64,000 nt of DNA, taken from positions 32,001-96,000 of the IMG/VR virus record IMGVR_UViG_3300032030_000028, one strand, 5' to 3'. Position 1 is the stretch's first letter, and each line of letters opens with the position of its first letter. The DNA comes from a virus (lineage: Duplodnaviria; Caudoviricetes). The notes beneath the pieces are model-generated. The model saw only the letters and a list, made by a program, of their open reading frames with translations. It was not told the origin of the DNA and did not search any database. Below, in pieces: positions 19,683 to 63,254 of this stretch. A program made the position numbers and the translations under genes.

Positions 19683-20069
19683 ATGAAACATATTAGTGAA
19701 TCCATAAGGAATGTAAAATGCTACGTTAACGAAGATACCGTAACTCATGATAAAAGATCGCAATCTTTCCAATACGGTGACGGAAGCCTTGTCTATTTTG
19801 ATGAGATTTTAACATATCCCCAATATCACGACAATGCTCTGGAAATCGAGACTCTGCATGCCGTAACTAAAAGAAGAGGTATTGGTTCGAAACTGATAGA
19901 AGCTATCAAGGATTATGCTGATTCCGAAAGAAAATCAATAGTGGTATATGCTAGTCCGCTGACAAACGACATATCTGAAAGAGACCTTATCAAATTCTAT
20001 AAAAAGAATGGATTTATACAAGATCCGGATACCGACAATCCACATTGTTTGATTTATATCGGAAGATAA
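19683..20069 (+). CDS. GNAT acetyltransferase with MKHISESI leader
   Basis: RRGIGSKLI acetyl-CoA motif and LIKFYKKNGF. Confidence 0.85.
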   Translation: MKHISESIRNVKCYVNEDTVTHDKRSQSFQYGDGSLVYFDEILTYPQYHDNALEIETLHAVTKRRGIGSKLIEAIKDYADSERKSIVVYASPLTNDISERDLIKFYKKNGFIQDPDTDNPHCLIYIGR

Positions 20070-20072
20070 TTC

Positions 20073-20104
20073 AAAATCGGACTCGAAAGGGTCCGATTTT
20101 TTTT
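20073..20104 (+). terminator. Intrinsic terminator
   Basis: Same hairpin as 19629. Confidence 0.85.
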
Positions 20105-20130
20105 ATTTTTTATACAAATAAGATTTTTAT

Positions 20131-21687
20131 ATGAAAAATATTGGAAGTTATATTCAAGAATCCCAAATGTTTGAGGCAGAAAAAGAAAATTTAAAGTTAT
20201 CTAAAGAAGACCAAAAACAACTACAAGAGATTCTTCAAAGAGCTATTACTGCATTTTATAATGATGATGAAGATAGAGATATAGAAGAATTTATTAAAGA
20301 TACATTTGCTGATTATGGATGGTCCGATAAGCTCATGTCTGGATTCATAGACATATGTAAGCAGATTGTGGACAAGTCTGATAAATATGTTGAAAAATTG
20401 AGTAAAACAGATAAAGATGTTAATGAAAGTTTGGGTGATTTAATTGCCGAAAAAGATGGGGAGGGCTTAAAAAAGGCAATTGATGCAGTTGATAGTGGCT
20501 TGGGAAAACTTGTGGATGCCGGTGTATTCGGAGATAATGCTAAAAATAAGCGAGCTGTTAATAAAGCACTTGGCAATACAGCGGCCGATAAAGCTAAAAA
20601 AGGTGTTGACAATGTGGTTTCAACAAAAACTGCGGTAGAAGATGCTCATAAAGCAGAAGTAAAACGTAACGCTGAGATGGCTAATAATATCGGGCGGGAT
20701 GGCAAATTCCACCAAGATTTGGTAACCGGAAAATATTACAAATCCGAAGAAGAACTTAATCGAGCTGTTGGGAGAAGAAAAATGGAGGAATTTGATAAAG
20801 AATATGAAGAAGCTGTTAAAAAAGAAACCGATATAAAGAAAAATAACCAGGACACATATCAAATTCAAACATCACCAGGTAAATGGAAAGATGTATCTAA
20901 AGAAGAGTATGAAAAGGCTAAAAAAGAAAATCCCAGAACAGCTAAAAAGACGGAACGTTCTTCCATAGATCCTCATGAGTATAAAATACCAACTTCTAGA
21001 GACACCAAATATGGATATGAAAAGGATGGGGAAATAACCCATACACACCTTCAACGTCATTATGAAATGGAAACTCCGTGGTGTCGTTTCTTGACTTCCG
21101 GAGGTCCTCAGAAGGTAGCGTTAGGTGCAGCTATCGTGGGTGCCGTGGCTCTCACTACGGCCGTTGCGGTACATACTGCCAGAAAGCAAAATGAAAAATT
21201 CTTAGCAGGCCTCAAAGCCCGCTCCGAACAAGCTGACGACCCCAGAATTCGCAAGGAATATGAAAAATACTATCAAGATGCATTAAAGGCTATGTATAAG
21301 GATAATGGCAAGGTTAGAATGGATCCGGATTTTTCTAAAATCCCCGAAGAGAGTAGAAAGTCATTCGTTAAAATTTACGGTTCCGGCAAAGATCTTCGCA
21401 AAATGGGCAAAGAATATATTAAGAAAAACGGTTCCGAATTTTTAGAATATGATAGAGACCATACTGCTTCTTCTACTAAAAAAGAACCTAAAGAACAAGT
21501 AGCTAAAGCTAAAGACGGATCCGAAATCCATGCTCGCCGCAAGAAATCCGGACACGGTATGACCTATGTGCGTACTAAAAACGGCAAAGAAGTCGGATAT
21601 GCCACTAAGGACGATTTCCGGCGCGCTAGACAAAATGAAGGCATGATTTCATTGAGAGATGCTTTGTTAGAATCTTTTGAAATCTAA
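20131..21687 (+). CDS. Putative internal head/ejection protein with one transmembrane-like helix
   Basis: Leader MKNIGSYIQE|S; ALGAAIVGAVALTTAVAV helix; C-terminal KDGSEIHARRKK module. Confidence 0.65.
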   Translation: MKNIGSYIQESQMFEAEKENLKLSKEDQKQLQEILQRAITAFYNDDEDRDIEEFIKDTFADYGWSDKLMSGFIDICKQIVDKSDKYVEKLSKTDKDVNESLGDLIAEKDGEGLKKAIDAVDSGLGKLVDAGVFGDNAKNKRAVNKALGNTAADKAKKGVDNVVSTKTAVEDAHKAEVKRNAEMANNIGRDGKFHQDLVTGKYYKSEEELNRAVGRRKMEEFDKEYEEAVKKETDIKKNNQDTYQIQTSPGKWKDVSKEEYEKAKKENPRTAKKTERSSIDPHEYKIPTSRDTKYGYEKDGEITHTHLQRHYEMETPWCRFLTSGGPQKVALGAAIVGAVALTTAVAVHTARKQNEKFLAGLKARSEQADDPRIRKEYEKYYQDALKAMYKDNGKVRMDPDFSKIPEESRKSFVKIYGSGKDLRKMGKEYIKKNGSEFLEYDRDHTASSTKKEPKEQVAKAKDGSEIHARRKKSGHGMTYVRTKNGKEVGYATKDDFRRARQNEGMISLRDALLESFEI

Positions 21688-21709
21688 AAGTTCTTAAAAA
21701 ATCCATAAG

Positions 21710-21738
21710 AATCGGACTCAAAAGAGTCCGATTTTTTT
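21710..21738 (+). terminator. Intrinsic terminator
   Basis: AATCGGACTC-AAAA-GAGTCCGATT plus T tract. Confidence 0.85.
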
Positions 21739-21763
21739 ATTCTTTATTCAAAGAAGATTTTAT

Positions 21764-22183
21764 ATGAAACATATTAGTGAATCTATAATAGGAAGAAGGG
21801 GATCTTCAAATATTTCCGACTTCCGTTTTGAAAGCATAGTCCGAGGAAGTATAGTATATATTCCCGAACTCAAGCGAAACGATTCCGATAATCCTTATTT
21901 TTTGTGTGTAACTATCCGAGATTTATATGATTTGTGGCCGGATAGATACATAGATAGTAATTTACTTAGTTTAATTCATTATATTCTGCCTTCTAAATAT
22001 AGTGTATATGACACTCCAATCGGAGAGGTAACCCTTCAAGGATATAAAAATCATTTTCCATTTTATGACGGTAATAAAATACCCATAAAAGCTATATACG
22101 GACCTATAGATCGGCATAAGTTAAACAGAATACTATCCTCAGAAGACACATTAATAGATTTTTTAAAAAATTTACACCCCTAA
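21764..22183 (+). CDS. Leader-tagged hypothetical protein (MKHISESIIGRRG)
   Basis: 139 aa, shared leader. Confidence 0.8.
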   Translation: MKHISESIIGRRGSSNISDFRFESIVRGSIVYIPELKRNDSDNPYFLCVTIRDLYDLWPDRYIDSNLLSLIHYILPSKYSVYDTPIGEVTLQGYKNHFPFYDGNKIPIKAIYGPIDRHKLNRILSSEDTLIDFLKNLHP

Positions 22184-61653: not shown

Positions 61654-61678
61654 TATTATTTTATTAAAAAAATTAAAT

Positions 61679-62323
61679 ATGAAAAGTTTAACGGAATCTA
61701 TTATAGGGAGACGAAGTGCGGAATTTCGAACACACAATGATCCTACATTAAAAAATCCGGCATTAGAATTTAATGCTATAGTTAAAGATATAGGAAATTG
61801 TCTTAAATCTCGTACTAATTGTTTATTAAATTGTGGGAATTATACAGCCACAGATGGTTTAGAAGATATAATTTCGGCAATTCAAAAACGTATTCGAAAA
61901 TATAAAAATTCTCGCCAATATTTTTATTTCGGAGATGGAGATACGGTGCCTTCCGGATCGCAAAAAGATCTATTTGATTACATAACAGATTTTTATCAAA
62001 AATATCCTGGTGAACCTAAATATGGAACAACTCCTGGTGAAGATACAATTATTGTTATAGATATTCGTGGCAATATTAATTTACCTGATAAGACGCCGCA
62101 ATGGATTGCTGATAAAAATATTACGGTTGTCGTAATTGGTGATAAAAATATACTTTTAGACCACAACTGGGATGTTTTTTTAAGAACAGCTAATGAATAT
62201 ATAGAGGGCCCGTATTCATTTGGATATGTACATGATAAATATTTATTCAATAATCGCGGATATAGATTTGATGCTGATGATAAAACGCAGAAAACAACAC
62301 CTCCTATTGTATGGAAACACTAA
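61679..62323 (+). CDS. Leader-tagged hypothetical protein (MKSLTESIIGRR)
   Basis: ORF 61601..62323 restarted at ATG 61679. Confidence 0.8.
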   Translation: MKSLTESIIGRRSAEFRTHNDPTLKNPALEFNAIVKDIGNCLKSRTNCLLNCGNYTATDGLEDIISAIQKRIRKYKNSRQYFYFGDGDTVPSGSQKDLFDYITDFYQKYPGEPKYGTTPGEDTIIVIDIRGNINLPDKTPQWIADKNITVVVIGDKNILLDHNWDVFLRTANEYIEGPYSFGYVHDKYLFNNRGYRFDADDKTQKTTPPIVWKH

Positions 62324-62347
62324 TACTTTAATTGAGAATTTCAATAT

Positions 62348-62370
62348 AAAGGTCTTGCAAGAGACCTTTT
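62348..62370 (+). terminator. Intrinsic terminator
   Basis: AAAGGTCTT-GCAA-GAGACCTTT. Confidence 0.75.
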
Positions 62371-62396
62371 ATTTTTTATATAATTATAATGAAAAT

Positions 62397-62789
62397 ATGG
62401 AAGAAAAAATTACATTATCCCCATATACCCCGGAATGGGAGGATGCTATAGACATGCAATTCATGCAATCGGTTATCGACGAGGTCACTCAATCCTGTCT
62501 GCTTCCCAACCCTATACCTCTTGCCCGCATTCCTAAGATCATCGGACAGGTAGCTAAGTGGTTCTGGCAGCACGATGACACCTCGGTAGAACAGAGATTC
62601 TATCTTATTAAAAACGAAGAATTCTGCAAGGGAAATATGTTGAACAAGATAGTACAGCTTCCGGAACAAATTATGGCTGTTCAAGGGTGTTATAAAACCA
62701 ATAATCTCAAATATGGAGTCATGGGTGATTTCTCGGTGGAGAGGATGATGTTGAGCACTTATTCTATGTATGGAGCGGAGAATAGATGA
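62397..62789 (+). pseudogene. Truncated duplicate of the neck gene
   Basis: Nearly identical to the first ~125 codons of the 63336 gene, then switches into a copy of the portal 3' end. Confidence 0.85.
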
Positions 62790-62861
62790 GAAGCTTAAAA
62801 AGTATAAAGATATTATCAGTGAATCTGAGGAATCATAGTATTATTTAAAAAAAATCAAAAT

Positions 62862-63254
62862 ATGAAAAGTTTAACGGAATCTATTAAGAATATCAAAGAA
62901 AGAAGAACTCCTTATCAAATTGATCAAAATGATCTAAAAAAGGTGGAAAAAGTCTTGAATGATAAAAAAACCTGGAAAGAATTATCTAAATTATGCAACC
63001 TATCGGAAGAAATCACCAAGCTATATTGTACTAGTCGATTAGAAATGCTTTCGGATCCGGAATGGTATGAAAACTTCGAAGGCGTGCGCAATCTTAATAT
63101 GGCTTACGTTATTTCTGAATTAGCCGATACCGATGATGAAGACTTCCAAATAGAATTAGATGATGAAAATATTTCCGGATGGGAATGGCAAGATATTAGT
63201 AATTTGGTCACCGATGTTATGAACAGATGTCTCAAGGCTTTAAGATACTCTTAA
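62862..63254 (+). CDS. Leader-tagged hypothetical protein (MKSLTESIKNIKE)
   Basis: 130-aa ORF. Confidence 0.8.
   Translation: MKSLTESIKNIKERRTPYQIDQNDLKKVEKVLNDKKTWKELSKLCNLSEEITKLYCTSRLEMLSDPEWYENFEGVRNLNMAYVISELADTDDEDFQIELDDENISGWEWQDISNLVTDVMNRCLKALRYS

Follow-up and report, generated by a model that had tools for sequence, protein, structure and literature searches.

Why do ten small-protein genes in one stretch of phage DNA begin with the same peptide, when no two of their bodies match? The stretch, hereafter the window, comprises 64,000 nucleotides (nt), bases 32001-96000 of the linear IMG/VR record IMGVR_UViG_3300032030_000028, which is 110,371 bp long and 49% complete by CheckV. An earlier note on this DNA had listed ten genes starting MK[SHN][IL]xESI and read their common leader as a T4-style address for loading proteins into the phage head. 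All ten positions are the ATG of open frames of 121-214 amino acids (aa), and eight continue IGR as the note had it, with 19683 (RN) and 62862 (KN) as the exceptions. The DNA pattern of the first eight codons, ATGAARNNNHTNNNNGARTCNATH, has 10 matches in the window, exactly these genes, and none in 100 dinucleotide-preserving shuffles; at 61679, where the earliest in-frame ATG is 61601, the family ATG is the likelier start. We describe the element as a 13-residue N-terminal tag, MK-x-[IL]-x-E-S-I-I-G-[RK]-[KR]-G. From sequence and from analogy with T4 we read it, with moderate confidence, as a T4-type capsid-targeting and processing signal, whose cargo would be packed, cut and injected and would be effector-like.

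Scanned over the full record, the motif marks 31 genes (107-214 aa) and one 33-aa remnant; by summed length the tagged genes take up 11% of it (about 12.4 kb). The phage is an uncultured T4-like jumbo phage of ruminant guts, and pairwise blastn groups four contigs into two sister phages with about 70-90% nucleotide identity, each represented by two contigs: one phage comprises G000, which is the window's record, and G003, the other G002 and G001. Counting starts of the form M[KR]x-hydrophobic-x-E[SA][IV] in frames of at least 60 aa, with one chance match removed, gives 114 tagged genes on the four contigs, 55 and 59 per phage (31 + 24 and 23 + 36); the gene sets are crude open-reading-frame calls, and counts from two sister phages are not independent. 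The ten genes of the window are listed here; TATAAATA is a motif that we take to be the T4 late-promoter consensus.

19683-20069, plus strand: 128 aa, start MKHISESIRN (short form of the tag), GNAT-like body (Pfam Acetyltransf_7, E=1.2e-5, 26.1 bits against a cut-off of 27)
21764-22183, plus strand: 139 aa, start MKHISESIIGRRG, body without relatives
40463-40828, minus strand: 121 aa, last gene of a five-gene tandem array, singleton body, TATAAATA 18 nt before the ATG
40868-41287, minus strand: 139 aa, body of an 'IPG'-motif family (cluster 1, 7 members)
41291-41707, minus strand: 138 aa (cluster 2, 4 members)
41704-42117, minus strand: 137 aa (cluster 6, 3 members)
42122-42541, minus strand: 139 aa, first gene in the array, body from the large 'L..GDIV' superfamily (52/114)
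54064-54549, minus strand: 161 aa, start MKNIIESIIGRP, weakly GNAT-like body (Acetyltransf_7, E=8e-4, below the cut-off), ortholog in G002
61679-62323, plus strand: 214 aa, immediately behind the portal gene, body swapped in the sister phage, where homology stops 24 nt past the ATG
62862-63254, plus strand: 130 aa, start MKSLTESIKN (short form), between portal and neck genes, ortholog in G002

The tag is conserved at two levels, of which the peptide is the first. Glu6 is retained in 114/114 tags, and position 4 is aliphatic (I or L) in all listed codon counts. At Lys2, Ile/Leu4, Gly10, Arg11 and Lys12, synonymous codons are used about as they are across the genome while the residues stay (for Arg11, AGA 34, AGG 30, CGG 21 and CGA 11), indicating selection on the peptide; conservation at the DNA level only, which the earlier note had named as an outcome that would sink its reading, is not what the codons display. 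DNA upstream of the tagged genes is not conserved, and the tag is far better conserved than any column of the bodies. A Sec, Tat or lipoprotein signal peptide was ruled out by direct reading: the tag is charged and polar, with no hydrophobic core of at least 10 residues and no Cys.

Behind this constant start stand many kinds of body. With the first 13 residues removed, the 114 bodies form 52 BLASTP clusters, which merge into 33 groups after iteration with hidden Markov models. The largest is a superfamily with 52 members, a loose 'L..GDIV' motif and a uniform size of 107-155 aa. When the four largest groups were compared with all others by hhalign (122 of 528 possible pairs), a single weak link emerged (probability 42%), and the rest stayed at or below 4%. 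The earlier description of the bodies as unrelated is accurate within the window, where no two match by BLASTP at E<1e-3, and too strong across the four contigs, where one superfamily supplies 52 of 114. The bodies of 19683 and 54549 both match GNAT weakly, and searches of PHROGs and Pfam with the ten window cargoes and with all 114 returned nothing besides weak GNAT matches.

When 40 of the 52 superfamily members were made into a body-only profile, 534 proteins among 1.84 billion representatives proved related at E<=1e-3. Inspection of 147 newly listed relatives found the tag in at least 48; many others have no leader, the domain beginning at residue 2, and still others have different short leaders. 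Tag and body are therefore separable. A search in which the tag was retained returned 76 proteins, all tagged and all metagenomic, a result biased by the tag's own words.

The head genes of these phages are of T4 type. G001 and G003 encode a gp21-type prohead protease within a 471-aa protein (Peptidase_S77, 45 bits; phrog_207, E=8.8e-45) and a gp23-type capsid protein within a 629-aa protein (Gp23, E=1e-21). Alignment of the protease to T4 gp21 (NC_000866) sets GELEHP against GELNHP (His85) and ISSRATG against VSSRGLG (Ser140). In the protease protein of G001 (36102-37517, equivalent to L033:16102-17517), the protease is fused to a scaffold-like C-terminal part of 311 residues, which holds five tandem repeats of about 12 residues of the EKWIVEEYSPE type (EKWIVEEYSPEI). 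Hydrophobic-x-E-S sites number seven in this part, where its length predicts 0.5 (P about 1e-6, or P = 0.008 given the hydrophobic-x-E count). In the capsid protein, AIKE-40/GLQPNNVSADHGG (a slash marks the putative cut; AIKE-40/G lies just ahead of a DHG motif) parallels T4 FLTE-65/AEIGGDHG in a by-eye alignment; BLASTP of the capsid protein with T4 gp23 was too weak for cleavage-site mapping and left this part unaligned. Two tagged genes of G001 stand immediately ahead of the protease gene, in the position of T4 genes 67 and 68, and nine stand ahead of the capsid gene; BLASTP of the former two with T4 gp68 found no similarity. Directly behind the major capsid gene, G001 53296-54858 (L034:13296-14858) is an HNH/homing-endonuclease gene (phrog_3339, E=1.7e-113), and an open frame of similar size is next.

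T4 itself offers the closest model for the leader. Read from NC_000866, the T4 starts are MKTYQEFIAE in ipII and ipIII, MKTFKEF...ITE in ipI, MELITE in alt, MEGLIE in gp67 and MLLIPE in gp68, and the sites in gp24 and gp23 are ...LRE/S and ...FLTE/AEIGGDHG. The commonest tag, MKTLQESI, is identical to the MKTYQEFI of IPII and IPIII at six of eight positions, a match short enough for chance or convergence. The [IL]-x-E of the tag, at residues 4-6, has the position of the T4 Alt cut, and IPIII residues 12-18 (SVVKAKG) recall SIIGRKG, which may be coincidence. As set out in PMC5694885, a capsid-targeting sequence brings all T4 internal head proteins into the core, N-terminal propeptides are cleaved off by gp21, and Alt loses six residues at ITE-6. 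For IPIII, parts of PMC9026906 report that the first ten residues suffice as signal, with positions 4 and 7 serving targeting and positions 8 and 10 processing, and that Asp at position 10 blocks processing and leaves targeting intact. The internal proteins (Ips) of T-even phages have only the leader in common according to portions of PMC3012670 and PMC12373910; the former describes them as a diverse set that counters defences, and the latter has Ip1, Ip2 and Ip3 each inhibiting a different GmrSD enzyme and at least 10 Ips reported across T-even phages (citing Repoila 1994). The tagged genes resemble the T4 cargo in placing a short leader, of the form MKT-hydrophobic-x-E-x-I and with an L/I-x-E motif, on otherwise unrelated small proteins, and Alt is a precedent for a propeptide of six residues. 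The phages, like T4, combine a protease of gp21 type with a scaffold, a gp23-type shell and a T4-type portal. As in the account of T-even Ips in PMC12373910, the tagged genes are variable hot-spot genes.

The tag motif also occurs inside proteins, where it joins cargo to a larger carrier, and of all the observations this is the most telling. A relaxed search with the DNA core of the tag found four places besides the listed tag starts. One lies in a 513-aa protein outside the window (G000 4646-6187), whose residues 35-370 are a 46%-identical paralog of the proteins at 20131 and 22187, up to the C-termini of these (...ALLESFEI and ...YINESVE); past the carrier it continues in frame with ...EYINE/SIIGRKG and then a 145-aa cargo. 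The junction xE/SIIGRK is kept in four fusion proteins, this one and three database homologs. Two of the homologs, with 74% and 53% identity over the queried region, read ...DYINE/SIIGRKG and ...NYISE/SIIGRKN, and the third, of 358 aa, has another cargo behind ...DYINE/SIIGRKE. A 274-aa protein of G001 consists of two tagged units fused in frame. The junction motif lies about 1100 nt from any start codon and so cannot be an element of translation initiation. Such a conserved joint between carrier and exchangeable cargo is what one would expect of a processing site.

The window paralogs of the carrier belong to a wider set of proteins with looser leaders. Leaders ending hydrophobic-x-E before S or A had been noted at 16362, 17099, 20131, 22187 and 45497, and all are present; in these five larger window proteins, and in others outside the window, they are 9-13 residues long. 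Across 298 non-family proteins, [ILVM]xE[SA] is two to three times commoner in the first 36 residues (17, 23 and 16 per 12-residue bin) than further in (4-10). The five window proteins are:

16362-17078, plus strand: acidic protein, 238 aa, long-form leader MKKLTQYLKNVNE/A, no Pfam, PHROG or PDB match
17099-19603, plus strand: highly charged protein, 834 aa, leader MKRFHEYTGMITE/S, C-terminal domain shared with 20131 and 22187
20131-21687, plus strand: charged protein, 518 aa, one hydrophobic segment, leader MKNIGSYIQE/S, 46% identical to the carrier part of the 513-aa fusion
22187-23317, plus strand: paralog of 20131, 376 aa, leader MNLKNYILE/S, terminus ...YINESVE
43593-45497, minus strand: 634 aa, loose leader MKSFKKQLNLSE/A, no family match

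Three of these (17099-19603, 20131-21687 and 22187-23317) form, together with the 513-aa fusion at G000 4646-6187, a paralog family of highly charged proteins. Each has a single hydrophobic segment, and all have in common a domain of some 40 aa at the C-terminus, ...KDGSEIHARRKK.G.GMTYVR.KNGKE.GYATK... The family has no Pfam, PHROG or PDB match (PDB queries with 20131, 16362 and 22187 gave nothing meaningful). Judging from their sequences, its members may be ejection or internal head proteins, and one of them carries tagged cargo.

A second clade appears to use the same device in altered form. The record IMGVR_UViG_3300003523_000012 (loci L171 and L202; 93.9 kb, 44% complete) has at least eight genes starting M[KR]xLKEALI[SN]K[KN]T..., five of them in tandem directly behind a nucleotide-sugar epimerase gene, matching the neighbourhood of the window array. 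Both clades follow the pattern M-K-x-hydrophobic-x-E-small-hydrophobic-I-small-basic-K, and by this comparison the two look like versions of one leader that have diverged. The second-clade fragment yielded no protease.

Within the window, the ten tagged genes all lie among head, neck, terminase or baseplate-type genes. The landmarks are:

42550-43590, minus strand: nucleotide-sugar epimerase gene, directly upstream of the array (phrog_540, E=4.4e-55)
45516-47318, minus strand: large terminase gene, heading the minus-strand gene run that includes the five-gene array (phrog_5989, E=1.9e-53)
59815-61653, plus strand: T4-type portal protein gene (phrog_213, E=1.4e-64)

The motif TATAAATA precedes the protease and sheath genes by 21 nt and two tagged genes by 16-18 nt, counted to the ATG, and lies 71 nt upstream of 19683; no promoter or k-mer motif specific to the tagged genes was found.

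Comparison of the sister phages shows how quickly this gene set changes. Orthologs were found for 27 of 52 tagged genes (median identity 74%) and for 93 of 122 other genes (85%); with fewer orthologs and lower identity, the tagged genes turn over faster. The five-gene array (40463-42541) is missing from G002, where its flanks are contiguous, and the segment 19595-23080, about 3.5 kb and including the tagged gene at 19683, is absent at the matching place. This segment looks as if one unit, consisting of a hairpin-T-run terminator, a tagged gene and the gene of a charged protein with a membrane segment, had been duplicated in tandem; 19683 and 21764 are preceded by nearly identical stretches of 70 nt. 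Homology between the sister phages breaks at -3 to +46 nt from the tag ATG in 23 of 55 tagged genes, against about 3 expected by our own arithmetic from block-end density, and in ten the body is replaced; that homology blocks end at tags is in part expected, because the tag is a conserved island. In another gut metagenome, two contigs run straight from 41709 to 42543 and from 40831 to 42547, with loss of whole cassettes, a weak hint of the same kind of change. Joints in sequencing reads were discarded as evidence of recombination, being mostly short (21-37 nt) leader-to-leader matches from paralogs.

Together, these observations suggest the following course of events, modelled on T4. Tagged proteins would bind the scaffolding core, supplied by the protease-scaffold fusion, during prohead building, and the gp23-like shell would enclose them. 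The gp21-type protease would then probably cut after Glu6, at hydrophobic-x-E/S, giving cargo that starts SIIGRKG; this cargo would stay in the head with the DNA and enter the host at infection. The cargoes would be small proteins that turn over fast, a few of them enzyme-like (GNAT), and the arrays would change as cassettes are gained, lost or swapped at the tag. With T4 Ip1-3 and Alt as the model, the cargo would most likely serve in counter-defence or host take-over.

The T4-style loading proposed in the earlier note thus finds backing in the T4-type protease and capsid genes, in the 6/8 leader match, in the Alt cut at ITE-6 and in the conserved junctions. One of its parts fares less well. 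The portal does end ...KYKDIISESEEL as reported; C-terminal motifs of this kind are at chance level, though, in 8 of 408 proteins against about 6 expected. The conservation of SIIGRKG behind the proposed cut belongs to a larger group of observations that weigh against packaging in the manner of T4.

SIIGRKG lies behind the tag's only Glu and is the best-conserved part of the tag; conservation thus reaches seven residues past Glu, where in T4 it is confined to the removed propeptide. T4 has three tagged genes, against 55-59 per genome here, and we know of no T4-type phage with 55 or more packaged species per virion. The internal proteins of T4 are basic; the mature forms of the tagged proteins have isoelectric points from 4 to 10 (median 7.6) and are not uniformly so. 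The fusion of protease to scaffold and the occurrence of cargo behind a large carrier are further departures from T4. Just 3 of 114 cargoes have a Pfam match, in each case a weak one to GNAT, and TATAAATA occurs in the 60 nt ahead of just 3 of 114 tagged genes. Nothing on the window's own record matches the protease or capsid families of T4, the genes for which are on the sister contigs. In the second clade, Glu is absent from three of the eight copies; by the T4 data, these could still be targeted and go uncut. Lastly, a peptide signal leaves unexplained why codons 6-9 are near-invariant as GAA TCT ATA ATA. GAA occurs in 113 of 114 tags, TCT in 101 of 113 (genome share 0.30) and ATA in 106 of 114 and 99 of 105 (genome share 0.43). 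This 12-nt stretch, the GAATCTATAATA core, may well act at the nucleic-acid level in addition to the peptide signal.

An unlikely explanation, and still the one that best survives among the alternatives, is that the tag is recognised by some other common partner, such as a modifying enzyme, a chaperone, a non-capsid protease or a compartment, and that the proteins act in the infected cell. A docking or modification site in a working protein would be expected to conserve SIIGRKG past the putative cut, and many arrays lie outside obvious head modules, for instance beside deazaguanine-pathway genes. Candidates for such a partner are scarce: the four contigs (both genomes being incomplete) have no SPASM domain, their radical-SAM matches are a QueE-like enzyme and an NrdG activase that belong to pathways of their own, and no other partner gene was seen travelling with the arrays, for which no systematic screen was made. 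The likeness to the T4 targeting sequence, together with the presence of a T4-type protease and scaffold, also argues for the capsid. The chance that the tag acts in a mature cytoplasmic protein is nevertheless the main reason why we hold the capsid reading at only moderate confidence.

It is rather improbable that the conserved N-terminal peptide is itself the active part, for example by binding one host target, with neither packaging nor cleavage. Under this explanation the concentration of 52 of 114 bodies in one superfamily of uniform size, and a tag that outdoes every body column in conservation, would both make sense. The range of bodies fits it poorly: at least 32 further groups have no profile similarity to the four largest, GNAT-like bodies and bodies of 214-217 aa bear the same tag, and the main body family also exists without the tag or with other leaders. 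Junctions behind a large carrier are hard to square with an N-terminal warhead.

Mainly nucleic-acid conservation, in which the 12-14-nt core GAATCTATAATAGG would act in RNA or DNA (as a site for a translational repressor, an RNase or cassette recombination) and the peptide would be a by-product, would account for the codon-invariant core, the homology breaks at 23 of 55 tag ATGs with ten bodies replaced, the gut-metagenome contigs that drop whole cassettes and the identity of T4 ipII and ipIII over their first 32 nt, and is nonetheless very improbable: the flanking tag codons are synonymously free while their residues are kept, homology would end at the tag anyway as the sole conserved island, CTATAATAG occurs outside tags in the window once against 1.2 expected, which is chance level, and the distant junctions exclude a role in translation initiation.

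Returning to packaging as a capsid-targeting signal, giant phages provide a second point of comparison. In passages of PMC5694885, the head-internal proteins of phiKZ, SPN3US and 201phi2-1 number dozens, include many paralogs and are cleaved after Glu by an S80 prohead protease; the propeptides are inferred to target the prohead, and some paralogs, such as gp53 and gp54, have identical N-termini. SPN3US carries more than 40 MDa of ejection proteins according to part of PMC7411985. Dozens of different proteins and a Glu cleavage motif are common to those phages and ours. The details differ: the giant-phage motif is A/S/G-x-E and the propeptides mostly exceed 100 residues, as against Ile/Leu at P3 and a putative six-residue propeptide here; the protease is of family S80 there and S77/phrog_207 here; and the giant phages have no single short tag common to some 50 genes. 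By rough arithmetic, and given the SPN3US load, about 55 species of about 15 kDa in tens of copies would fit the capsid.

If the tag works as in T4, sequence alone marks more than 100 candidate injected proteins in an uncultured clade of gut phages, nearly all of them of unassigned fold. These would be the first proteins to meet host defences, and so a rich source of candidate anti-defence or take-over factors, and T4 cargo loading would prove expandable to about one tenth of a genome. In metagenomes, the tag could be used to search for virion cargo, and in engineering it could direct packaging. The conserved residues past the cut and the invariant DNA core point to rules outside the T4 model. 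A bolder version, which we consider doubtful, is that the tag is a universal plug-in address that directs more than 50 proteins into the capsid, with SIIGRKG as a second signal (for example for holding by a carrier or for exit order) and the 12-nt core as a recombination joint for swapping, duplicating and fusing cassettes; were it true, no other T4-type phage would come near this one in the size of its injected arsenal.

In GenBank, megablast of the terminase region against phages found no match, and tblastn of a typical tagged protein against 50,697 phage records found no relative. The ESM Atlas matched only viral clusters, at 0.85, and offered no model. Full-text searches for ESIIGR, SIIGRK, MKTLQES and MKHISES, covering article text, turned up no relevant paper. 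The nearest named phages by capsid and protease, at 26-47% identity, are Tenacibaculum PTm1 and pT24, Sphingomonas PAU, Chryseobacterium MA9V-1 and the Prevotella Lak megaphages; the MA9V-1 publication is without virion mass spectrometry. Five further IMG/VR records have genes with the same start, as a pattern scan showed. In a metagenome scan, the full tag was present at 12 of 62 single-match loci examined, the remaining 50 being chance-like, and the multi-copy loci stem from few related samples. Among public runs, a sheep gut metagenome is the best source of the phage DNA, and bovine and goat gut runs are weaker ones. Contigs from an RNA library are identical to parts of three tagged genes, which is no proof of transcription.

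Several further features of these phages were recorded. Shine-Dalgarno-like sites are scarce across the four contigs, preceding 6 of 114 tagged and 25 of 378 other genes; such scarcity would fit a Bacteroidota-type host. At window positions 3544-3965, within a tRNA island, ARAGORN makes a call resembling a transfer-messenger RNA that overlaps two tRNA calls. Between them, G000 20350-27800 (L052) and G001 about 89200-90100 (L164) have QueD-, QueC- and QueE-like genes and a FolE2 gene, a combination that suggests 7-deazaguanine DNA modification, along with genes for an NrdG activase and a sigma-70-family factor. Tagged arrays adjoin both gene sets.

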